This document shows, piece after piece, positions 9,507-61,305 of a stretch of 64,000 bases of DNA. The notes under the pieces were generated by a model. That model made no database searches. It was not told the origin of the DNA and worked only from the letters and a program-made list of their open reading frames with translations. Position numbers and translations under genes: made by a program. How positions within the stretch are numbered: position 1 is the stretch's first letter; each line of letters begins with the position of its first letter. The DNA comes from a virus (taxonomy: Duplodnaviria > Heunggongvirae > Uroviricota > Caudoviricetes): the IMG/VR virus record IMGVR_UViG_3300028048_001599, one strand, 5' to 3'.

Positions 9507-9525
9507 AAAAAATTATTACTCCCTA

Positions 9526-9554
9526 TTGACAAATTATGAAAAATATGTTATAAT
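9526..9554 (+). promoter_or_regulatory. consensus sigmaA promoter
   Basis: TTGACA-17bp-TATAAT with an extended -10. Confidence 0.85.
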
Positions 9555-9586
9555 ATGTATATAATAATTTGAAAGGTGGTAAAATT

Positions 9587-15723: not shown

Positions 15724-16965
15724 ATGAAAAAAATAATAGCGATAGTAAGTGCAATAGCAATGTCAATGTCAATAGTGGCTGGTAGTGCTACAAGTGTAAG
15801 TGCAACGTCAGGTTCTACGGGTGTCGGTATGTCGGCTCACGCATTGAAGGCATACAATGAGAATTGGCAATACGTGTATGGTAGTGCAACAACAGGATAT
15901 GTTGATTGTTCAGGACTAATATGTACATATAATGGGGTAGGTGGCAACCGAGTTGATATGTTAGGTAGTTCATCGGAGTGGGGTTATGTAAGAAATGGTA
16001 TTCCACGTATACATGGTCTTGGACTTCATCAACCTGGACATGTTGGTGTCTACATTGGTTCTAACACGGCTATTGATGCACGTGGTACTGGTTATAATTG
16101 TGTAATGCACAATCCGTATAATAAGTCATGGGTCGAATGGTTCAAGATAGCAGGGGTAGCATACCCGAATACAGGTTGGGTTCTGTTTGATAACAAAGCT
16201 TTCTATTATGAAGACGGTCAGTATATAGTAGATACATCAAGGGAATTAGATGGGGTAACCTATAATTTTGATAGTTTAGGCAGGTCAGATGTACTACCAC
16301 CTGAGGATGTGTATACACAGACAGATTATTCAAACGTAACAATTAATCAACCTACGGTTTCATATGCACCACAACCTGTTTCTACTGAGGGGCAAGCACA
16401 AATAGACGCAGAAAACAGGGCTGCTGAACAGCGAAGGGTTGAGGAAAAAAGAAAAGAGGAAGCACGTAAAAAGAAAGAAGCTGAACGCAAAAAGAAAGAA
16501 GCTGAACGTAAAAAGAAAGAAGCTGAACGTAAAAAGAAAGAAGCTGAACGCAAAAAGAAAGAAGCTGAACGTAAAAAGCGTCGTCAAGAGGCTATAAATA
16601 AACGTTTAAAATTTGAGAAATCGAAATATTGTAACATAGGTAGTACAGGACTTCTTGTAGTTGAATATCAAGAACTTCTTAAAAAGTACGGTTATTATAA
16701 GGGCGAGATAACCGGGTATTTCGATGAATCTACATCTCAGGCTTTATCAGACTTTGCAAAAAATAACAAATTAATGGCTGTTGGTATCGGTGATGAGGGG
16801 ATTTATAATACCCTTAAGTCAACATATGTAGAAACAAAGCCAATTACCTTTGAACCAATGCCTGGTGTTGCAATTGAACAAAAAACAAGGTTACAGTCAG
16901 ATGGAAAGATTGTACCTATAGAAAATAGTTTTATGTTTATTGATTCAACTATCACTTATAAGTAA
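15724..16965 (+). CDS. secreted NlpC/P60-like cell-wall hydrolase with a charged coiled-coil and a peptidoglycan-binding domain
   Basis: Signal peptide; YVYG...DCSGL...GHVGVYIG catalytic Cys/His; GST G.V.EYQELLKKYGYY.GEITGYF PG_binding_1-like segment. Confidence 0.85.
   Translation: MKKIIAIVSAIAMSMSIVAGSATSVSATSGSTGVGMSAHALKAYNENWQYVYGSATTGYVDCSGLICTYNGVGGNRVDMLGSSSEWGYVRNGIPRIHGLGLHQPGHVGVYIGSNTAIDARGTGYNCVMHNPYNKSWVEWFKIAGVAYPNTGWVLFDNKAFYYEDGQYIVDTSRELDGVTYNFDSLGRSDVLPPEDVYTQTDYSNVTINQPTVSYAPQPVSTEGQAQIDAENRAAEQRRVEEKRKEEARKKKEAERKKKEAERKKKEAERKKKEAERKKKEAERKKRRQEAINKRLKFEKSKYCNIGSTGLLVVEYQELLKKYGYYKGEITGYFDESTSQALSDFAKNNKLMAVGIGDEGIYNTLKSTYVETKPITFEPMPGVAIEQKTRLQSDGKIVPIENSFMFIDSTITYK
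16468..16578 (+). repeat. 21-bp coding tandem repeat (KKKEAER x5)
   Basis: AAAAAGAAAGAAGCTGAACGY repeated five times. Confidence 0.95.
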
Positions 16966-17316: not shown

Positions 17317-17401
17317 AATCAATATAAATTTTATAATAAATTTTATTTAAAATCAGTACTTTTTATTATAATATATAAAGAAAATTAGTGGGGGTTTTAA
17401 T

Positions 17402-18004
17402 ATGAAGGCTAGTGAAGTGTTGCAGTTATTAAAAATTACAAGACCTACATTAACAAAATATGTTAAAGAGGGGAAAATTAAAGTGACTGTGAAAGGTAAT
17501 GGGCAATATGATTATGATGTAGACAGTGTATATAAGATGTTAAATAAAGATATAGAACGAAAGACATATTTATATGCACGTGTATCAACGGTAAAACAGA
17601 AAAAAGATTTAGAGAATCAGATACAGTTGTTAAAAAATTATTGTTTTCAGAATGGATTACAAATAAATGGAATATACACTGATATAGCAAGTGGTATAAG
17701 TTTTGAAAAGCGTAAAGATTTCTTTACAATGCTCGATGATATTATAGCAGGTAAAGTAAAAAAAGTGGTAATAACATATAAAGATAGATTATCACGTGTA
17801 GGGTTTGAGTTATTTAGTTATTTATTTAAGAAATACGGGTGTGAAATAATTGTTGTATCAGAGGTAGGTTCAGAGAAACTTGATAGTGAGGAAATATTTG
17901 AGGAAATTGTGAGTTTACTTCATTGTTATTCTATGAAGCTTTATAGTAAGAGAAAAGGACAGAAAATTAAGTCGGTGCTTGATGAAAAGGATGATAACAC
18001 ATGA
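17402..18004 (+). CDS. tnpA: IS607 transposase (MerR-type HTH + serine recombinase)
   Basis: N-terminal HTH; YARVST, QKKDLENQ, DIASG, DRLSRVGF. Confidence 0.95.
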   Translation: MKASEVLQLLKITRPTLTKYVKEGKIKVTVKGNGQYDYDVDSVYKMLNKDIERKTYLYARVSTVKQKKDLENQIQLLKNYCFQNGLQINGIYTDIASGISFEKRKDFFTMLDDIIAGKVKKVVITYKDRLSRVGFELFSYLFKKYGCEIIVVSEVGSEKLDSEEIFEEIVSLLHCYSMKLYSKRKGQKIKSVLDEKDDNT

Positions 18005-19230
18005 TTGTAACAAGGGTAGAAAAGCATGTTTTAAAGCAGAATAATGTGTTTTATTCTTTAATTGATAACTTTTGTTTCAAAGCAAAGAATTTATATAATC
18101 ATGCTAATTATATTGTACGTCAAGCATTTTGTAGTGAGAATAATTGGGTGAGATATAGGGATTTAGATTTAATACTTAAGAATGATATTGAATATCCAGA
18201 CTATAGGGAAATGCCTACTGCACAGTCAGCACAGCAAATACTGAGATTGTTGGATAAGAATTGGAGTTCATTTTTTAAAGCAATAAAAGATTGGGGTATG
18301 CACAAAGATAAATATTTAGGTAAACCTAAACTTCCAAAGTATAAATCTAAAAATGGTAGAGAAATACTAATATTGACAAATCAAAATGTAAAGTTAAAAG
18401 ATGATATATTAAAGTTTCCAAAAACATTTAAAGGTTTTAATATTACACCTAGATTTATAAAGCGTACAGATTTTGTATCATTTCAACAAGTTAGGTTTTT
18501 ATCAAGAAATAAACATATAATTATAGAACTTGTTTATAACATAGAGGTTCCGAATACAGTGAAGTCTAATGGAAGATATTTAAGTATTGATATAGGTGTA
18601 GATAACTTAGTAGCCATGACAAACAATTTTAACAAAGCACCAGTTCTCATAAATGGCAAGGGTCTAAAATCTATAAATCAATACTATAATAAAAAATTAG
18701 CATATTATAAATCAATAACAAAGGTAATGAACAAAAAGGACTATTCTAATAGACAAAATAAACTTACTATGAAAAGAAATGATAAAATACTTGATTACAT
18801 ACATAAAGCTAGTAGGTATGTAGTTAATTATGCTAAGAAGACTGATGTGTCAGTTATTGTAATAGGTTACAATAAGGAGTGGAAGCAAAACAGTGTAATG
18901 TGTAAACAAGTAAATCAGACTTTTATTCAAATACCATTTAGTAAATTAATAAATCAAATAAAATACAAAGCTGAAGAGTTTGGTATTGAAGTAATTTTAA
19001 CTGAAGAAAGTTATACATCTGGTACGTCATTTTTAGATAATGAACAACCTATAAAAGAATACTACAATAAAAGTAGAAGAATATATAGGGGTTTGTTCAA
19101 GACAAAAAGTGGGGTAGTAATAAATTCTGATGTAAATGGTGCATTTCAGATAATGAAGAAAGTATTTCCAAATGCTTATGCAGATGGAATAGAGGGTTTA
19201 GTGTTTAACCCAGTCAAAGTAAGTGTGTAA
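18001..19230 (+). CDS. tnpB: IS607-type TnpB RNA-guided endonuclease
   Basis: RuvC motifs LSIDIGV, EESYTS (the repositioned Glu typical of IS607 TnpB) and INSDVNGA. Confidence 0.93.
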   Translation: MIVTRVEKHVLKQNNVFYSLIDNFCFKAKNLYNHANYIVRQAFCSENNWVRYRDLDLILKNDIEYPDYREMPTAQSAQQILRLLDKNWSSFFKAIKDWGMHKDKYLGKPKLPKYKSKNGREILILTNQNVKLKDDILKFPKTFKGFNITPRFIKRTDFVSFQQVRFLSRNKHIIIELVYNIEVPNTVKSNGRYLSIDIGVDNLVAMTNNFNKAPVLINGKGLKSINQYYNKKLAYYKSITKVMNKKDYSNRQNKLTMKRNDKILDYIHKASRYVVNYAKKTDVSVIVIGYNKEWKQNSVMCKQVNQTFIQIPFSKLINQIKYKAEEFGIEVILTEESYTSGTSFLDNEQPIKEYYNKSRRIYRGLFKTKSGVVINSDVNGAFQIMKKVFPNAYADGIEGLVFNPVKVSV

Positions 19231-19320
19231 AGCTGATTGACAAAGTTTTAATAAAGTTATTTATTATATTTTAATAGTTTTTATTAAAAACAAAACATAA
19301 TACATAGATTGAATAATGAT
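19189..19320 (+). ncRNA. putative omegaRNA (IS607 right-end scaffold plus flanking guide)
   Basis: Overlaps the tnpB 3' end. Stems GGGTT/AACCC and TTTTAATAAAG/TTTTATTAAAA are conserved in the second copy at 36.7 kb. Boundaries approximate. Confidence 0.6.
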
Positions 19321-20740: not shown

Positions 20741-20915
20741 AAGTCGGTCAGGTGTGTAATTTCATATTTCAAGAAAAAGTCGCTCAGAGGGGATTGTAAG
20801 CAATTTCAGGCTCAGTGGTGTTATTTCACAAAATAGGAAATAATCAGTGGGAAATAGTGATTAATGGTGGTTTTGACGGATTAAGAAATTTCTGTAAAAA
20901 TTTTGAAAAAATGTA

Positions 20916-20944
20916 TTGACAAATTCGGAATATTGTTGTATAAT
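20916..20944 (+). promoter_or_regulatory. consensus sigmaA promoter
   Basis: TTGACA-17bp-TATAAT with upstream A/T tracts. Confidence 0.85.
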
Positions 20945-35653: not shown

Positions 35654-36610
35654 ATGAGTACAAATGGACAGCGTTATATTTTAATTGACTATAATCATAT
35701 GGCTTATAAGTTTTTCTATGGGGCACAGCCTTTAAGTTCCGTAGTAAATATAAACGGTGTTGATACGATTGTAGACACCACAATAGCTTACGGTACTATC
35801 AGAGCCTTGAATAATTATGGTCAAAGGGGTAAATACTATATCGGTATTTGTTACGAGGGTGGCTCAAAGTTTCGTAAAGAATATTTTAGTGGTTCAACAA
35901 CCGAGGGTTATAAAGGAACACGTAAGTCGATGGATAATAAAATGAAGGCAGCTATTGACGTTTCAATTGATTTACTTGCTAAGTGTGGTGCCGCGCAGTA
36001 TCGTTGTTTGGGTTACGAGGCTGATGATATGATTTATTCTATTGTAAAGCGTATCAAGGCAGTTGATAAAACAACACCGATTGATATTATCACAGGTGAT
36101 GGGGATATGTTACCACTTGTAGATGAACAGGTGTCTGTATTTATGAAAGGTACTCGCACTTTTGCTTTTCCGGGTGCAAACGAATACAGGGGGTATTATC
36201 AGGTAACTCCTGAGAGCTGGGAACAATATCTCAAAAATACTTCTGCTTATAAGGATTATCTCATTCCGTATAATTCAATGTTACTTTTTAAGCTTATGAA
36301 GGGTGATAAGGCAGATAATATACCTGCAGTTACACGAGGATACGGTGGTAAAGGTTACTCAGCACTTATGCAGAAAATGCTTAATGACGGTATTGATTTT
36401 TCCGAAGTATTCCGGTATGGCGTAGACTTCGATGAAACAATACGTCCTGTGTTAAAGTACTATTTTGATACAGATACAATTGATAAGATGAAATGGATAT
36501 ACGGGGGTATGAACCTTAGAAATTTCGAGGGTGACATTGCTCCTCTGAAGCAACTTCCAATAGATAAAGTTCACGTTGTATATTCATCGATAGGTATTAA
36601 TAAAATTTAA
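35654..36610 (+). CDS. stand-alone 5'-3' exonuclease / flap endonuclease (Pol I N-terminal domain type)
   Basis: Motifs LID, YKGTR, GYEADD, TGDGDM and GDKADNIP. Confidence 0.92.
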   Translation: MSTNGQRYILIDYNHMAYKFFYGAQPLSSVVNINGVDTIVDTTIAYGTIRALNNYGQRGKYYIGICYEGGSKFRKEYFSGSTTEGYKGTRKSMDNKMKAAIDVSIDLLAKCGAAQYRCLGYEADDMIYSIVKRIKAVDKTTPIDIITGDGDMLPLVDEQVSVFMKGTRTFAFPGANEYRGYYQVTPESWEQYLKNTSAYKDYLIPYNSMLLFKLMKGDKADNIPAVTRGYGGKGYSALMQKMLNDGIDFSEVFRYGVDFDETIRPVLKYYFDTDTIDKMKWIYGGMNLRNFEGDIAPLKQLPIDKVHVVYSSIGINKI

Positions 36611-36682
36611 GCATTTAAGCGAGGTAAATTAATTTATGTTAATTTACAAATATATCAAGGAATGTAATAAATTTAAGGCACT

Positions 36683-36813
36683 AATAAAAGTAGAAGAATA
36701 TATAGGGTTTAGTGTTTAACCCTATCAAAGTAAGTGTGTAAAGCTGATTGACAAAGTTTTAATGAAGTTATTTATTATATTTTAATAGTCTTTATTAAAA
36801 ACAAAACATAATA
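36683..36813 (+). mobile_element. orphan, internally deleted IS607 right end (omegaRNA scaffold without tnpB)
   Basis: 36683-36707 matches 19066-19090, and 36705-36813 matches about 19194-19302 with about 4 substitutions. Confidence 0.9.
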
Positions 36814-37042
36814 TTTTCAAGACATAAAGTTTTTAAAGTTATGTTTAGTATACGCGGGTTCTGAAGGTCAGAATTTATTAGTAACAATTTTTGACTATGA
36901 TACGAATTTTTTAACAGGTTATGTTAAAGAACATTCATTAAACAAGTCTGTAAAAACTGTAAGTAATAAAAAGGTTGATAAGTATGTTAGTGTTGGTTGG
37001 AAAGTTGATTTCAATGAATATTATACAAATCAATCTGGTAAA

Positions 37043-40000
37043 GTGTATATAGACCAACAAGGGGGAGAATTTTACGATATATTCCCTGAAGGTGCAACAT
37101 TAGATATTTCATCGTTGAAAGTATATGTAGATAATAAAATGGTTAATGAGGCTGACTATACTTATTCGATCGATGAGAATTTTAATAACAGTAACAAAAT
37201 AATGTTGGCAATAAAGATTAATAAAGAAGCGAAAAATGGTTATACAGTTTATTATAATACTATTCACTCATGGGAAAATATAAATGACTTTGGTGATAAA
37301 GCATTAAATTCGGTAATGTATAAGTCTTGTAATGAAACTTTTAGTACAGGTAAAAAACTAAATCAAGGTGATATATATTATTCTGATTTGTTTGAAAATT
37401 TAAGTTACGATGACGTTAGTAGCGAAGATAGAGATAAAAGATTATTTGCGTTTAGTGAACATAGTTATATTATAGATGTACCAATAGCTGTTTCTGCCGG
37501 ACTTAAAAAATCTGTTAAAGCAGGGGATTCTTTGGTATATAGTTCATCAGAAACGATAAGGGGTAAAGTTCCTTATACTTATAATATTAGATATGCTACA
37601 GATTCAGAGACTAGGGCTAAAAATATAGTTATATTTGATAACTTAGATAATTATGTAGAAAACCATACACGAGGAGTACTAACAAGTATAGATGTAAGTG
37701 AACTAAAAAAGTTGGGAGCAAACCCGAAAATATATTGTTCGGAACAAGATATTGATTTTAGTATTGAGGCTAATAGGAGTTTAAGTAATAATAATTGGAG
37801 TAGTTACGAAAATTCTAACTTATCAAAAGTAAAGTCTATAGCTATAGATGTTTCTAAGGATAGTAAAGGTAATGATTTTGTTCTGGATTATAATAAGGCT
37901 ATACATATCTATATTAAAATGTATGTTAATGAGTTGTCAGAAGACGTAGAAAAGAATAAAATATATAATGGGGTACATTCTGTAAGTGACTTTTTAATAG
38001 AAAATAATGTTAGTAACAGATATGTACAATGGGGTTATACTGTATTAGATTGTAGGTCAGCGGCACAGTTTTCTATTAAGAAGGTTGATGAAGCTGATTC
38101 TTCAAAAGCATTGTCAAATGTAAGATTTATATTGACTGGTGTTTCTGATTATAGTGGTGATGTTTATAAGTTGAAAACAACTAATAATAATGGTATCATA
38201 GACTTTGGTATGCTAGAAAAAGGTAATTATTCACTTTATGAATATGATTATGCTAATCCTGATTATTTTGTGAATAGTTTAGTTTTTGATATAGTTGTTG
38301 ATGCTAATAACAATATAAAAGTAAACGGAAATAGTATTAATTTACCTTATGTTATAGGTGACACAAGAAGAATACATAATGATATACAATTTAACAAGAG
38401 GGACTTGGTGAATAAGAGTGTAGCTCTGGAAAATGTTAAGTTTGTATTAACAGGTACTTCTGACTACAGTACTAAGGTTTTTGAATATGCTTCATCTGAT
38501 AGTGATGGTATAGTTAAATTTGAAAACATAGAAAAAGGTACTTATGCACTTAAGGAAGTTAAAACAAAAACAGGTTATGTAATTAATACTGCTGAATATA
38601 AAGTCACTATAGATGATAATGCACAAGTTAATATTATGAAGGACGGAAATAATTTAAATATAGACTCTAATGGGTTACTGACAGTTTATAATGAACCTCA
38701 GCATAGATTGGTAATACATAAAGTAGGAACTATACAAAATGCTGGTGGAGATGTTGATGATGTAGCAGGAGCAAAGATAAACTTGTTAGGTGGTACTGTT
38801 GATGGTGATTCTGTTGATATAACTTTAACTACTGATAGTAACGGTTTAGCTATATTTAATGGTTTACATTCTGGTTCATATAATTTAGTAGAAGTAGAAG
38901 CACCAGAGGGGTATACTGTTAATTCAAATATTTATACGGTTACTATAAAGCCTGAAGGGATTACTGTTGATGGACTTGAACAAGATGCACAAGGTAATTA
39001 TTTATTAGTAGATAAAGAAGCAGGAACTTTGGAAATACATAAGAAATGGATAGATAGTTCTACAAATAACCGTGAAGAACCTGTTATACATGTAACTACT
39101 AGTATGCCATCATGGAGTGTACAGTTTGATAAAAGTAAATTAAAGCGTGAGACATATGCTACAGCGAGTGGAAATGTTTCATGGACTGATATTACTGGGT
39201 TTGAATATACTTCATTATCAGATAGAGATAATCAGATTTTAGCTGATTTAAGAATGTTAGTAAGAACAAATCCTCCTAACGTATATACTGTGGATGATTA
39301 TACATTGTATAGAGTGGATGACGGTGCTACACAGTTTGTATTATATGCTTATGTAGGTTCTGATAAAAAATTGTACTGGTGGACAAATGCAAGGGATGTC
39401 TATATGTGTTCTGATTGTAGTCATTTATTTGACGGAACAAAAATAGAGTCTTTTGATATACAGTATACGAATGTAAATAATAAGTCTGGTGCAAATATAA
39501 AATTTAATAAAACATTAGACTTATCTTATATGTTTGCAAATTCAGAGCTAAAAACAATGTGTTCTTATTTAGCTGCTGATAATGTAATAACTGCTAAAGG
39601 TATGTTTGCAGGTTGTCAGGATTTAGCATTTACTGATACTACTGCTATTGAATGTCAGCGGTGGAAACAAAAAGAAGATGATTGGGTTCGTGAGGATGTT
39701 ACTTTATATAGTTATAAATTTTCATTAGGTGATTCTAGTAACTTAGAGGATATATCTTCTATGTTTGAGGGAACGGAGTTAAAGTATGGACCTCGTGGGT
39801 TTGAATGTGAAGCGTTAGATTTGAACGAGTTAAATGTTTCTGCTGTACAAAATATGAGTAGGATGTTTAAAGATTCTAACGTAAAACCAGCTTTTAAAAG
39901 TTGGGAAAATACTGTAGTTAATGACATGACTGAAATGTTTTATAATAATACTACTATAGAGGTAGTAGAATTACCTCATGTTGTTAGTAGTATTGATTAT

Positions 40001-43000
40001 ATGGCAAAGATGTTTTATAGTTGTCAAGCTTTAAAGTTTGTAGACATTAGTGGTTTAGAAACTTCAAATGTTCAAGATATGTCATATTTATTCTATCTTT
40101 GTCATCGTTTAACTTCTTTAAATTTAAGTACTTTAAGCACAGATAGTGCAACAACTATGAAATCTATGTTCCAGGATTGTCATCGTATGGGTACTTTGAA
40201 TTTAAGTGGATTTACGAATACATCAAATGTTACAGATATGTCGTACATGTTTGACCATTGTGGGTATACTCCAAGGTTAAGTGAGAATTATTCTGATTCT
40301 CCTACTGATAAAGGTTATGGCTTAATTGAGGGCAGACCGCAAGATATGTACTTTAAAGGTTCATTCAATATAATTGGTATAAATAATTTTGATACATCTA
40401 GTGTAACTACAATGAACCATATGTTTGCAACTGCTGGACCTGTACTTGGAGTTTCACTTTCTGTTACTATTCATAATTCTGAAGATACGGGTAAACCTCA
40501 TCAGTTTACATTTGATTCTAATTATGCAGAGGGTGAAGAGTTAGTTGAATTATATGCACCATATTATATCAGGTATTATGATGGGGTAATGGACACTAAG
40601 CAAATGAGTATTATTGCTACAGGGCTGGATGAAGAGACTTATATGGTTCAGACTGGTGCTAATATTGCACATGTTGAAAATGGTATTGGTGTCGATGAGT
40701 ATATGGAACTTGTACCTATTGAAAAATGTACTAATTCTTTTTACTGGTCGATGGATTTATCAGGTTGGAATACTTCTAATGTAACTGATATGGAAATGAT
40801 GTTTTATAATGCACAGTTTTTAAGAGATTTGAACATTTCTAATTTTGATACAACTAGAGTAACTAAGATGTGTTTTGTACCTGAGCCTGATGGTGTTTTC
40901 ACTGATTTTAGTCCTTACACTAAAGGTATGTTTGAAGATTGTTTTTCATTACGGTCTTTAGATTTAAGTGGATTTAATACATTGTCTATAACGAATGCGA
41001 GTTTATCCAGAATATTTAAAGATTGTATGGAGTTAACAAGTATTAGTTTTGGTTCTAACTTTTTCACTTCAAATATAACTTATGCTGGGGATATGTTTAT
41101 TAATTGTAAAAATCTATTATCTATAGATGCATCGCATTTTGATTTTTCAAATATAAAAAATATGAATGGACTGTGTGCTTATTGTTTTAAATTGCAGAAT
41201 TTTGATTTAGGTACAGGATATTCGATTGAGAATTGTAATTATGCCCGTTGTTTATTCTTAAATTGTTATGACTTGGTGACATTAGATTTGATGGGTGATT
41301 TTGATACTTCTGCAAATGCAGGGGATTATGCTACACCTAATATGGATTATGCATTTTATAATTGTGAGAGTATTGTTTCATTAGATTTTGGTGATAATTT
41401 TTATTACAAGGGTAATGGAGACAAGATGTTCTATAATTGTAAGGATTTAATATACTTATATTTAGGGGATTGTTGTACACCTAATTCAATTAAAGAAATG
41501 TTTAGTGGTTGTGAAAGTTTGCGAGAATTAACATGGTATACATCTTTTAATGGTACTTATTATAATAATAATAACTCATCTGAATTTAAAGGATATTCAG
41601 ATGTAGAGGGGTTATTTAAAAATTGTAGATCTTTATACTATTTGGATATTAGTGAATTACCACTTGATGAGCCGACTTCCACAAAGGAAATGTTTTATAA
41701 TTGTAGTTCATTAGATACATTAATGTGGAATGGTCCTGATACATCTAGTGTAAAGGATATGTCTTACATGTTCTGTAATTGTTCTGCTGAAATCACCTTT
41801 GATTTAGATACTTCCAGTGTAACGGATATGACCAGTATGTTTGATAAATATGGATATACAGGTGAATTACATGTAGATAATTTTGATACATCATCAGTTG
41901 AGAATATGTCGTATATGTTTAGGGGTTGTAAAGCAGAAGTAATAGGTTTGGATAACTTTGATACTTCAGCGGTGACCGATTTTTCATTTATGTTTTCTGA
42001 GTATGAAAATGATTTACAATTAGACATGAATACCTCTGGTGGTAATATAAAGAGGATGTTTTATAAATTTAAGGGTGAAACTTTGGAAGTAGATAATCTT
42101 AGTGCTGCTAATGTTACAGACATTTCATATTTATTTGCTGAGTCATCTGTAAAGAATTTGACAGTTGGTATTATAGGTTCTAATAATGTTAGAAACATGT
42201 CGTACTTGTTTAGTAACTGTAAGCATATGGAGTCGTTAACAATAACGAGTATAGATACTACTAAAGTTACTAACATGACTGCAATGTTCAGTTCATGTAA
42301 AAAGATTACTGAATTGGACTTAACAAAGTTTAATACTGCCAGAGTTACTAATATGACTAACATGTTTGTAAATAGTAATTTATTGGAGACTATTAAAATA
42401 TCTTCTTTATGGGATGTTACTAGAGCTACAAGAAGTGCATCGATGTTTGATAATTGTACAAGTATTAGGGGTAGTAATGGTACTACTTATAATAGTTCTT
42501 ATACGGATAAAACTTATGCAAGAGCTGATACAGCGGCTAATCCTGGTTATATGACTTTGGTAATGTCTACAGGGAGTGGTGCATCAGCAGTAACAATTAA
42601 GACAACATCATCTTCTGCAAGTGGTGAATCATACTGTACTGCCACAGATGCACATGAATTTCATGTAGATGGACCGGATGACCAAACATATGTATTTGAT
42701 GGTTTAAAACAAAATCAGGTATATTATGTATGGGAAGAGCCAATGGAACATTATAATACGGATCATGGTTATGATAATCCTTTGATTTTATATAACGAAT
42801 CTGGAACAATTACAAATACAGAAGATATCAAAACATATGATATAACACTTCAGAAAGAGTTGTATAATAAAGCAGGAGATTATAGTGGACTTATAGAAGA
42901 AGACTATCGTAAAACTTTTGAAGTAAAGGTAACATTTGGTACTGGGGTAAAGAAAGAAACTACTGAACTCGGACCTGCTGGTTTATTACTTAGTCCTGTA

Positions 43001-44767
43001 AGTGGTACATATTATGTTGACCATATATTAAGAGATAATACAGTAATTACACAAAAAATCAGTTTTGTGGGTGGTTCATATACTTTCTCACTTAAAATTG
43101 GTGAAAAGTATATAATAAAGAATGTACCAGAGAGTAGATATTTTAGTGTACAAGAGATATTATCAGGTACGGATAAAAATAAATACTCAGTAAATTTTGA
43201 AAGAGATGGTACGCAGATATCCAAGGTTATTGCTACTAATGCATATCCAGACACTAATGTATCTTATGCTCAAACATCTAAGAATGGTAACGATGTTGAT
43301 ATTACAATAATTAATACTAAGAAATATGCTTATGATTATAATTCGAGTGTGGATGTAAAGATAAAGAAGGAAGTCATAGGTAATGTAATTGATGCATCAG
43401 AGGAATTTAAGTTTGGTATGTATTTAACAGATTTAATACCTTATCAAGAGTATAGACTTGTTAGTGATATAGTAGGTAAGGCAGATGTAGTAATAACAGC
43501 CGACGATAAAGGGGTAGCGTTTATTGATTTTTCAATGGTTAAAGATGAAACTGTTTCAATTAATCTACTTGTCGGTAGTAAGTACAGAATTGTAGAAGAA
43601 GGCGGAGATTATAGGTCTTATTATAATATTGTAGATGCTAATAATGGAAATAATATAAAGAGTACATCAGGAGCTGTTTGGACAAATAATAAGTCCTTGG
43701 TAACGGATGAAGAAATAGTAGATAGTAATGAGGAAGTTACTATAACATATACTAACTATAAGTATGTTACACAAAACATTTCTATCAGAAAAGAAACTAC
43801 TTTAAGTTCTGAAAATAATCAAGATAAGTTTTCATTTAATGTAAATCTATATGGGTTAGACGCAGATTCAAGTATAGATTCGAACGTGGGTAGTTTTAGA
43901 GTTGATGGCGATGGCAACTTGGATATTGATATTATAATGAATAGTCAAGATGAAATAATTTTATATAATATACCAGTAGGTGTAGAATATAAAGTAAAGG
44001 AGCGAGAATCTGCGTATAAAGCATCTTATACTGTTATGCATGGTGATAGTGTAGTAGAGTCTAACAGTAATAATACCACATATACACCTTTGGAAACCAC
44101 ATTAAGGACTATAGAGGCTTATAAAGATGTTGTAGTGACTTTTGTAAATAGTCGAGAAGGATGCGATGTTACAATAACAAAGAATGTTGATATGACATAT
44201 GGATTATTAACTAAGCCCGAATACTATGAAAAGGAATTTAGTTATCATATTGTATTAAGCAATCTTACTGGTACATTGCATGACTTGGAGACTGAATTTG
44301 CATATTTAAATACTACAGGTGGCGAAGATATAAAGCCCTTAAATGAACTTATAGGTGAACCAGAGGATAGTGTAATGTCAGAGGTTGAATTTGATATAAC
44401 CTTAAAGAATAAAGGGGTATTTAAGATACGATATTTACCTGTAGGTGCTAATATAAGTATAACGGAACAAGCTGATAATTTCTATGTTATTTCGTGTAGT
44501 GTTAGTGCTAACGACGGTGCTGTATTACAAGCAAGTGATGTACAAAATATAGATTATGAGATGCCATTAACTGTTTCTGAAACTATAGATAGCACGGATT
44601 CTGATATATACTTTGATTTCTTAAATACATATAAATTTAATTCATATATACTGCCAGCAGCAGGTATGAACAATTACTGGTACGTGCTATATGGGGTAGC
44701 ATTTATAATGTTAATATTGACTCTTGCTTATACTTACAGTAGTTATAAGAGAAGACAGGAGATATAG
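37043..44767 (+). CDS. giant cell-surface adhesin (SpaA/Cna-B-like Ig repeats, BspA/DUF285 leucine-rich repeats, sortase-type anchor); probably 5'-truncated
   Basis: K...L..V.F.L...G.Y.L.E..AP.GY repeats; many FDTSSVT.M..MF repeats; C-terminal LPAAG + TM + KRR. No signal peptide, and the frame is open from 36812. Confidence 0.88.
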   Translation: MYIDQQGGEFYDIFPEGATLDISSLKVYVDNKMVNEADYTYSIDENFNNSNKIMLAIKINKEAKNGYTVYYNTIHSWENINDFGDKALNSVMYKSCNETFSTGKKLNQGDIYYSDLFENLSYDDVSSEDRDKRLFAFSEHSYIIDVPIAVSAGLKKSVKAGDSLVYSSSETIRGKVPYTYNIRYATDSETRAKNIVIFDNLDNYVENHTRGVLTSIDVSELKKLGANPKIYCSEQDIDFSIEANRSLSNNNWSSYENSNLSKVKSIAIDVSKDSKGNDFVLDYNKAIHIYIKMYVNELSEDVEKNKIYNGVHSVSDFLIENNVSNRYVQWGYTVLDCRSAAQFSIKKVDEADSSKALSNVRFILTGVSDYSGDVYKLKTTNNNGIIDFGMLEKGNYSLYEYDYANPDYFVNSLVFDIVVDANNNIKVNGNSINLPYVIGDTRRIHNDIQFNKRDLVNKSVALENVKFVLTGTSDYSTKVFEYASSDSDGIVKFENIEKGTYALKEVKTKTGYVINTAEYKVTIDDNAQVNIMKDGNNLNIDSNGLLTVYNEPQHRLVIHKVGTIQNAGGDVDDVAGAKINLLGGTVDGDSVDITLTTDSNGLAIFNGLHSGSYNLVEVEAPEGYTVNSNIYTVTIKPEGITVDGLEQDAQGNYLLVDKEAGTLEIHKKWIDSSTNNREEPVIHVTTSMPSWSVQFDKSKLKRETYATASGNVSWTDITGFEYTSLSDRDNQILADLRMLVRTNPPNVYTVDDYTLYRVDDGATQFVLYAYVGSDKKLYWWTNARDVYMCSDCSHLFDGTKIESFDIQYTNVNNKSGANIKFNKTLDLSYMFANSELKTMCSYLAADNVITAKGMFAGCQDLAFTDTTAIECQRWKQKEDDWVREDVTLYSYKFSLGDSSNLEDISSMFEGTELKYGPRGFECEALDLNELNVSAVQNMSRMFKDSNVKPAFKSWENTVVNDMTEMFYNNTTIEVVELPHVVSSIDYMAKMFYSCQALKFVDISGLETSNVQDMSYLFYLCHRLTSLNLSTLSTDSATTMKSMFQDCHRMGTLNLSGFTNTSNVTDMSYMFDHCGYTPRLSENYSDSPTDKGYGLIEGRPQDMYFKGSFNIIGINNFDTSSVTTMNHMFATAGPVLGVSLSVTIHNSEDTGKPHQFTFDSNYAEGEELVELYAPYYIRYYDGVMDTKQMSIIATGLDEETYMVQTGANIAHVENGIGVDEYMELVPIEKCTNSFYWSMDLSGWNTSNVTDMEMMFYNAQFLRDLNISNFDTTRVTKMCFVPEPDGVFTDFSPYTKGMFEDCFSLRSLDLSGFNTLSITNASLSRIFKDCMELTSISFGSNFFTSNITYAGDMFINCKNLLSIDASHFDFSNIKNMNGLCAYCFKLQNFDLGTGYSIENCNYARCLFLNCYDLVTLDLMGDFDTSANAGDYATPNMDYAFYNCESIVSLDFGDNFYYKGNGDKMFYNCKDLIYLYLGDCCTPNSIKEMFSGCESLRELTWYTSFNGTYYNNNNSSEFKGYSDVEGLFKNCRSLYYLDISELPLDEPTSTKEMFYNCSSLDTLMWNGPDTSSVKDMSYMFCNCSAEITFDLDTSSVTDMTSMFDKYGYTGELHVDNFDTSSVENMSYMFRGCKAEVIGLDNFDTSAVTDFSFMFSEYENDLQLDMNTSGGNIKRMFYKFKGETLEVDNLSAANVTDISYLFAESSVKNLTVGIIGSNNVRNMSYLFSNCKHMESLTITSIDTTKVTNMTAMFSSCKKITELDLTKFNTARVTNMTNMFVNSNLLETIKISSLWDVTRATRSASMFDNCTSIRGSNGTTYNSSYTDKTYARADTAANPGYMTLVMSTGSGASAVTIKTTSSSASGESYCTATDAHEFHVDGPDDQTYVFDGLKQNQVYYVWEEPMEHYNTDHGYDNPLILYNESGTITNTEDIKTYDITLQKELYNKAGDYSGLIEEDYRKTFEVKVTFGTGVKKETTELGPAGLLLSPVSGTYYVDHILRDNTVITQKISFVGGSYTFSLKIGEKYIIKNVPESRYFSVQEILSGTDKNKYSVNFERDGTQISKVIATNAYPDTNVSYAQTSKNGNDVDITIINTKKYAYDYNSSVDVKIKKEVIGNVIDASEEFKFGMYLTDLIPYQEYRLVSDIVGKADVVITADDKGVAFIDFSMVKDETVSINLLVGSKYRIVEEGGDYRSYYNIVDANNGNNIKSTSGAVWTNNKSLVTDEEIVDSNEEVTITYTNYKYVTQNISIRKETTLSSENNQDKFSFNVNLYGLDADSSIDSNVGSFRVDGDGNLDIDIIMNSQDEIILYNIPVGVEYKVKERESAYKASYTVMHGDSVVESNSNNTTYTPLETTLRTIEAYKDVVVTFVNSREGCDVTITKNVDMTYGLLTKPEYYEKEFSYHIVLSNLTGTLHDLETEFAYLNTTGGEDIKPLNELIGEPEDSVMSEVEFDITLKNKGVFKIRYLPVGANISITEQADNFYVISCSVSANDGAVLQASDVQNIDYEMPLTVSETIDSTDSDIYFDFLNTYKFNSYILPAAGMNNYWYVLYGVAFIMLILTLAYTYSSYKRRQEI

Positions 44768-45530: not shown

Positions 45531-45637
45531 TTGAAAAACTCCTTTGTTTTAAGATTGTAAGTATAGTATACCGTAGGTTTATCATTTTGTAAATAAATTT
45601 TTAAAAAATAATTTCAAAAATATTTTTAAACATGGTA

Positions 45638-45666
45638 TTGACAAATTCTGAAATTTATGTTATAAT
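45638..45666 (+). promoter_or_regulatory. consensus sigmaA promoter
   Basis: TTGACA-17bp-TATAAT with an extended -10. Confidence 0.85.
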
Positions 45667-45901
45667 ATAGAAAATGTAACTATTGTGCCTGGTGTTTATA
45701 ATTTTGATACATTGACTTATAATTGTTCACTTGAATATTTATATGACACTTTTGACTTTCTATTTTCTGAAACTTGTATTTTCAACAAATTGTAGGTTTC
45801 ATTTTTGTTATAGTTGTATATTGATTTTTATAATAGAATAGAATAAAATAGAATAAGGTAATTGATTAATGGTATCAATAAATACATAGGTGGGGTAATA
45901 A

Positions 45902-56190: not shown

Positions 56191-56290
56191 CTAAATATGT
56201 TTCAAAACCAGTATCAAAACTTCCTATTACATAGAAAAATAAAACAGTACATTGAATTATAATATTTATAAAAGGTAGTTATACAGAGGT
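56191..56290. repeat. ~100-bp direct repeat, copy 1 (copy 2 at 60771-60870)
   Basis: ATATGTTTCAAAACCAGTATCAAAACTTCCTATTACAT... is near-identical in both copies. Confidence 0.9.
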
Positions 56291-56363
56291 GATAATAAAA
56301 TTGAGTGGTTTATCAAAATATGATGATACTGTATTACTTGATATAGTAAATTTTGGTGCAGAA

Positions 56364-60770: not shown

Positions 60771-60870
60771 CTAAAATATGTTTCAAAACCAGTATCAAAA
60801 CTTCCTATTACATATAAAAATAAAACAATACATTGAATTATAATATTTATAAAATGTAGTAATACAGAAG
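60771..60870. repeat. ~100-bp direct repeat, copy 2
   Basis: Matches 56191-56290. Confidence 0.9.
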
Positions 60871-61305
60871 TTAAAATTATAAATTAAATAAGACTATAAT
60901 AGATGCTATGTATAATAAAATACATATTGAGCAAGTAATTAACCTTCGTTTATAAAATTGTCTATCTTCATTTGAGAATACTGTTATATAAGATTTAAGA
61001 TTTTTTATAAATATTACTATACTTAATGTACTGGTGATTTATTTGTAGTATTACCATTAATAGTAATAACATATGGGGTAGTAGGCTTATTATATTATAG
61101 TAGACATAAAACATATGGGGATAAAAAATAACTACTTTGAGGTGATATTTATGAATGTAAGAAAAGCGATAGATATAGTCAAGGCATTATACAAGTTCGG
61201 GGTAATACCGATGACATTGTTTATATTAGGGATATCACCATTTTCCGATTGTAGCATTGTTTAATTGTAGTATTGAGGACTTAATAGGGGAAATGAGGTA
61301 ATACT

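Follow-up and report, generated by a model that had tools for sequence, protein, structure and literature searches.

IS607 omegaRNAs consist of a nexus, stem-loops and an essential pseudoknot, and the same nexus, stem-loop and pseudoknot architecture has been described for TnpB omegaRNAs in general (bioRxiv 10.1101/2023.11.20.567912). In the CboIStron of Clostridium botulinum (Zedaveinyte et al., bioRxiv 10.1101/2023.11.20.567912), the scaffold lies at the right end of the element and overlaps the 3' end of tnpB, its nexus loop pairs with the scaffold 3' end, further stem-loops follow, and the guide is the flanking DNA. PATEs, gene-less derivatives of IS200/IS605 elements, often encode omegaRNAs that are necessarily used in trans (Meers et al., bioRxiv 10.1101/2023.03.14.532601).

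The 64,000-nt stretch of viral metagenome DNA analysed here (“the window”) carries an intact, resident IS607-family element that resembles CboIStron in all of these respects. It also carries, at 36683-36813, a second copy of the resident right end, about 96% identical, referred to below as the orphan. Like a PATE, the orphan is a protein-less omegaRNA carrier needing a TnpB encoded elsewhere, but it derives from a serine-recombinase IS607 rather than a Y1-transposase IS605 element and has a right end only, whereas PATEs keep both ends and are mobilisable. Unlike CboIStron, it is without tnpB, tnpA, a left end and an upstream scaffold helix; another difference is that no group I intron is found here (no Rfam match), and an IStron reading was rejected on that ground. 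The best explanation for the orphan, with a probability of roughly 0.75, is that it is a decaying relic of a second IS607 insertion, which may still give rise to an RNA that TnpB can load. This is the reading offered as an alternative in the earlier note, a decayed remnant of a sister IS, and the evidence favours it. Relics of this kind are already known, in the form of the PATEs.

Table 1. Coordinates of the resident IS607 element, the orphan right end and their surroundings within the 64,000-nt window.
Feature	Position	Strand	Basis and details
Intact IS607-family element	17325..19298	+	tnpA and tnpB by Pfam; ends placed from relatives (left end approximate)
tnpA, serine recombinase (HTH and resolvase domain)	17402..18004	+	PF00239, E 1e-21
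tnpB, RNA-guided nuclease, apparently intact	18001..19230	+	PF01385 and PF07282
Helix B, upstream of intact omegaRNA nexus	19166..19189	+	19166-69 pairs with 19186-89; RNAalifold consensus; absent from orphan
Intact omegaRNA core	19194..19298	+	nexus 19194-98/19207-11; pseudoknot 19202-06 with 19293-97; SL1 19213-17/19237-41; SL2 19246-56/19279-89
Guide of intact copy, by position	19299..19318	+	flanking DNA directly 3' of right end; unique in window
5'-3' exonuclease gene upstream of orphan	35654..36610		
Region upstream of orphan, no left end	36611..36682	+	72 nt; local alignment no better than shuffles
tnpB fragment (19066 onward, to deletion junction)	36683..36704	+	repeat search, alignment; GGGTTT at 36705-36710
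Orphan omegaRNA core	36700..36809	+	nexus 36705-09/36718-22; pseudoknot 36713-17 with 36804-08; SL1 36724-28/36748-52 (closing pair broken); SL2 36757-67/36790-36800
Putative orphan guide	36810..36829	+	by position, directly 3' of ...ACAT; unique in window
Flank between right end and adhesin homology	36810..36844	+	35 nt; no match to P0121 (closest intact adhesin allele) in any frame
5'-truncated giant sortase-type surface protein gene	36845..44767	+	frame open from 36812; P0121 homology from residue 615

The resident element has what defines an autonomous IS607 insertion sequence, tnpA and tnpB between two ends. Its right boundary (...ACAT) is the point at which at least 15 relatives stop resembling each other: in an alignment of tnpB 3' ends from IMG/VR and metagenome contigs, likeness ends at once after this terminus, which reads ACGT in two lineages. 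The left boundary probably lies near 17325, as judged from eight relatives whose left flank ends in TAT; the adjoining flank in the window reads ATAT (17321-17324), and together these suggest a TAM of about NTAT. Such a TAM would differ from the right-end terminus at position -3 (NTAT versus ACAT), as TGGG differs from TCGG in CboIStron. TnpA proteins 65-81% identical to the resident one are found upstream of tnpB in at least 11 relatives. Three other loci have short tnpA remnants upstream of an otherwise intact tnpB (L019:2843-2980, L001:2868-2990 and L021:83-163), and stepwise deletion is thus common in this IS family.

The resident TnpB does appear to be the intact cognate nuclease it had been taken for: besides its Pfam domains, it has full-length relatives of 91-98% identity, and its RuvC motif residues D197, E336 and D377 are invariant and align with the motifs of chain 8j12_A. 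The large clade to which the window protein belongs (with relatives P0002-P0120) has no cysteines at the place where the zinc finger is usual in TnpB and Cas12 proteins, a further difference from CboIStron; between RuvC-II and RuvC-III this clade reads Ser, Thr, Gly where chain 8j12_A has Cys pairs.

Repeat search and pairwise alignment agree on the composition of the orphan: 19189-19302 matches 36700-36813 (114 nt, 96%), and 19066-19096 matches 36683-36713. As the earlier note had described, this is a second IS607 right end with 25 nt of tnpB fused to the last ~110 nt of the element and with neither gene nearby: the only neighbours are the exonuclease gene upstream and a giant ORF downstream. 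The deletion that joins the two parts also exists, although the repeat offsets (17617 versus 17511) make it 106 nt rather than the ~105 nt proposed; it shifts the tnpB frame, and its junction falls within the near-repeats named in that note, at a 6-nt GGGTTT microhomology that is a signature of slippage. The sequences 3' of the two right ends differ as claimed, but comparison with relatives places the end of the orphan (...ACAT) at 36809, so that the element ends 4 nt earlier than had been supposed and both guides open with AATA.

There is no left end in the 72 nt between the exonuclease gene and the orphan, where alignment to the resident left end is equalled or exceeded by 269 of 500 shuffles; alignment of the same 72 nt to the remainder of the IS is likewise no better than shuffles. 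Lacking both ORFs of an autonomous IS607 element and having no left end beside it, the orphan cannot move as a unit of its own, and a PATE- or MITE-like mini-element was rejected because only one end is present. Exact-pattern scans of viral, genome and metagenome contig collections for the right-end core gave no match, nor did megablast of 36000-38000 against phage and plasmid collections; a 19-nt A/T-rich terminal pattern had 36 matches in IMG/VR, all of them chance low-complexity sequence, and was discarded.

The orphan guide had been suggested to target intact adhesin alleles on competing elements. The closest intact allele of the downstream adhesin (P0121, 3,245 aa, 90% identical) lends this no support: its alignment starts only with residue 615 at 36845, and the guide and the 35-nt flank match nothing in it. 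The guide and flank have no match in IMG/VR either, and no syntenic relatives were found there using the exonuclease and the adhesin. Nothing in the window corresponds to the first 614 residues of P0121, at the start of which there is a signal peptide. What is left of the adhesin gene in the window is an ORF of 2,574 codons that lacks a start, a ribosome-binding site and a signal peptide, the earliest possible start being a GTG at 37043; the C-terminal end of its product has an LPAAG motif, a membrane helix and a KRR tail. The remaining 7.9 kb contain no stop, so the truncation looks recent. To judge from these alignments, the relic lies at the scar left where the adhesin gene lost its 5' end.

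The most economical history that would account for this anatomy begins with a second insertion by the same IS607 family near the 5' region of the adhesin gene, by a sister copy that differed from the resident by about 3%. Three deletions may then have reduced it: one taking the left end, tnpA and tnpB as far as the position corresponding to 19065; another, the 106-nt slippage between GGGTTT microhomologies, taking the stretch of the tnpB 3' end in which two upstream helices are encoded; and another, starting 35 nt past the right end, taking the adhesin promoter and first 614 codons. The remainder would be a guide-RNA core of ~105 nt and a “guide” that is simply DNA once flanking the old insertion. 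Every large ORF around the orphan is on the + strand, and neither the orphan nor the stretch separating it from the exonuclease gene has a plus-strand site resembling a terminator or a promoter. A role as plus-strand terminator or promoter was rejected for this reason, and the orphan is probably read through. The orphan scaffold being 96% identical to the resident one, the resident TnpB could load the resulting RNA and then cut DNA carrying a TAM and the old vacant site, although loading is made uncertain by the missing helix B and a lower model score (both discussed below). Such cutting would be the normal function in homing and retention, passively carried over, rather than the work of a purpose-built guide gene.

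Another possibility, though an unlikely one, is that the orphan is just such a gene: a selected, stand-alone guide-RNA gene, with TnpB loaded with the orphan RNA cutting competing plasmids or alleles that have an uninterrupted site, in a guide-only exclusion or addiction module. The use of omegaRNAs in trans by TnpB is accepted for PATEs, the apparently intact cognate TnpB is 17.5 kb away on the same strand, and the nexus, pseudoknot, SL1 and SL2 of the core are all complete. Against this, the orphan has no promoter of its own, and neither the intact adhesin allele nor the rest of the window contains a match to its guide. The remaining evidence, on both sides, comes from the fold of the core, the loss of the upstream helix and the nature of the substitutions.

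The family fold, in which SL1 also has an inner helix, was derived from an alignment of the tnpB 3' ends of TnpB relatives from IMG/VR and metagenome contigs. Across 18 sequences, 97.2% of its cells are paired, versus 38-51% with slid partners, and 17 of its 27 pairs show compensatory change, values reached by no shuffle. The nexus and pseudoknot helices are 100% paired in the family, with three compensatory pairs in each, and the pseudoknot occurs in at least six loop/partner combinations among relatives. A covariance model of IS607 right ends, of the kind the earlier note had called for, was built from 15 relatives with both window copies left out (model R1). It finds exactly two sites in the 64 kb, the intact end (85.4 bits, E 1e-16) and the orphan (70.7 bits, E 3e-13), each matched over the full length of the model (positions 1-116 for the orphan), which excludes chance as the source of the likeness. 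In 98 related loci, the model matches only right ends at the 3' end of tnpB or its remnant, and these score 68-121 bits, save for one marginal match of 29.8 bits; the score of the orphan thus falls inside the range of right ends adjoining tnpB or its 3' part. With its nexus-loop pseudoknot, two further stem-loops and significant match to the family model, the orphan has indeed retained the omegaRNA core.

Other searches for known or generic structure were less informative. No Rfam family (RAGATH-18 or other curated RNAs) reached its gathering score in the 64 kb, and below that score there were only chance-level matches (E 1-10) around the intact end; minimum free energy folds of the single sequences gave z-scores of -1.7 and -0.7, which carry no information in such AT-rich RNA. 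Among the relatives, there is also a short natural right-end variant (L034:4186-4273, the same as L002), of 88 nt versus about 116, which is without the inner part of SL2, yet lies beside full-length tnpA and tnpB and scores 91.8 bits against the model.

The 106-nt deletion took two upstream helices predicted in the family alignment, among them helix B, which lies within the 3' end of tnpB and borders the nexus on its 5' side. Helix B is consistent in 20 of 20 distinct sequences, and covaries at synonymous third positions: Phe TTT occurs with Gly GGA in seven and TTC with GGG in 13, with no mixed cases. This perfect synonymous-site covariation identifies it as a selected RNA element, and its loss from the orphan counts against a selected guide gene. 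One outcome named in advance as fatal to a functional orphan, removal of essential 5' scaffold by the deletion, is half borne out: a conserved, co-varying helix, which may or may not be essential, is gone. Helix B could be part of the mature guide RNA or just of the precursor trimmed by TnpB. Processing of the CboIStron omegaRNA takes place 42 nt inside the model, and cleavage is lost with most 5' truncations (bioRxiv 10.1101/2023.11.20.567912).

The orphan and intact cores differ by four true substitutions (A>T at 36723, G>A at 36724, A>G at 36764 and T>C at 36790), a fifth difference, T36703, coming from the deletion junction. These had been regarded as structure-preserving, but as a sign of selection this is not supported. 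The change at 36723 is in an unpaired linker; that at 36724 turns the closing G-C pair of SL1 into A.C (36724/36752), the sole unpaired cell in that covariation-supported helix. Only the two in SL2 keep pairing (A-U to G.U at 36764, G.U to G-C at 36790), and these pairing-neutral changes are of the commonest kind of transition. Two substitutions that keep pairing, one that breaks it and one that is neutral are what chance would give, and four are in any case too few to show selection. The stand-alone guide gene has in its favour that the two SL2 substitutions are pairing-neutral, and against it the loss of one conserved pair and a core score 15 bits short of that of the intact copy. The perfect 8-bp stem noticed earlier at 36702-36725 does exist, but as a by-product of the deletion junction rather than a sign of selection: its 5' half derives from the junction (the ATA from the far side), and it lengthens the nexus at the expense of SL1. 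It has no counterpart in the close relatives aligned, and a distant subgroup (L047, for example) has a bulged version.

In the former tnpB frame, the change at 36723 is synonymous (CCA to CCT) and that at 36724 replaces Val by Ile. Full-length relatives of 77-84% identity also have Ile here, though not those of 91% or more, and the substitutions could perhaps have been inherited from a close functional sister. Some of these observations count against a decaying relic: two of the four substitutions keep SL2 pairing, Val rather than Ile is found in all full-length relatives of at least 91% identity, and the whole core has survived three deletions next to an adhesin frame without a stop, so that either the events are recent or something has been kept.

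It is quite unlikely that the orphan serves the resident TnpB as a functional second guide, whether by cutting related plasmids with an uninterrupted site or by policing a joint made by TnpA between the left end at 17.3 kb and the distal right end. The transposition half of this idea can be considered in its own right: with the orphan as a distal second right end, TnpA could excise or move a 19.5-kb segment between ~17325 and 36809, including a Tad-like pilus operon, and the orphan guide would match the excision joint (the left flank ending ATAT, then 36810 onward), enforcing retention. TnpA excision of CboIStron needs just 40 bp of the left end and 60 bp of the right end (bioRxiv 10.1101/2023.11.20.567912). 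Over its last 60 bp, the orphan agrees with the intact end at 58 of 60 positions, AATA follows both right ends, and the left end near 17325 and the orphan right end share orientation and terminal bases. Such a transposing unit is nevertheless very unlikely: no circle junction, second 19.5-kb copy or relative lacking the unit was seen, and three deletions are enough to explain the anatomy. Misassembly by a chimeric join at a repeated IS end is highly improbable, for although the contig comes from a metagenome, repeats are classic misjoin sites and the adhesin is abruptly truncated, the orphan differs from the intact copy at five positions and by a 106-nt deletion, sequence on either side of it is unique, and the longest identical run of about 40 nt is short for a k-mer misjoin.

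The window contains several other repeats. At its very start (1-191), a 55-nt unit is repeated three times in tandem, almost perfectly. Six overlapping copies in a 21-nt register form another tandem repeat (16426-16593) inside a gene for an NlpC/P60 and peptidoglycan-binding protein, just upstream of the IS607 element. Near-consensus promoter-like repeats, with a TTGACA-type box followed by TG and a TATAAT-type box, precede gene blocks at 1513-1560, 9509-9556, 20896-20944 and 45618-45668. A 104-nt direct repeat (56193-56296 and 60774-60877, 93% identity, 4.6 kb apart) is unexplained. The two right ends themselves form 110-nt direct repeats (19189-19298 and 36700-36809, about 96% identical), 17.5 kb apart, that bracket the Tad-like pilus operon.

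On present evidence, the orphan is ordinary transposon decay, and as a relic it explains why the giant surface-protein ORF has no start, ribosome-binding site or signal peptide. The 110-nt repeats could mediate loss of the pilus segment, by homologous or TnpA-driven recombination; if the orphan did police a TnpA-made joint, a 19.5-kb cargo segment including the Tad-like pilus operon would be locked into the replicon. A by-product of the analysis is a covariation-backed guide-RNA fold for a zinc-finger-less TnpB clade abundant in metagenomes, comprising the nexus, the pseudoknot, both stem-loops and the upstream helix encoded at synonymous codon sites. Should the relic prove to load TnpB, a guide would here have outlived its transposon, and there would be a natural test of the 5' scaffold length that this clade needs.
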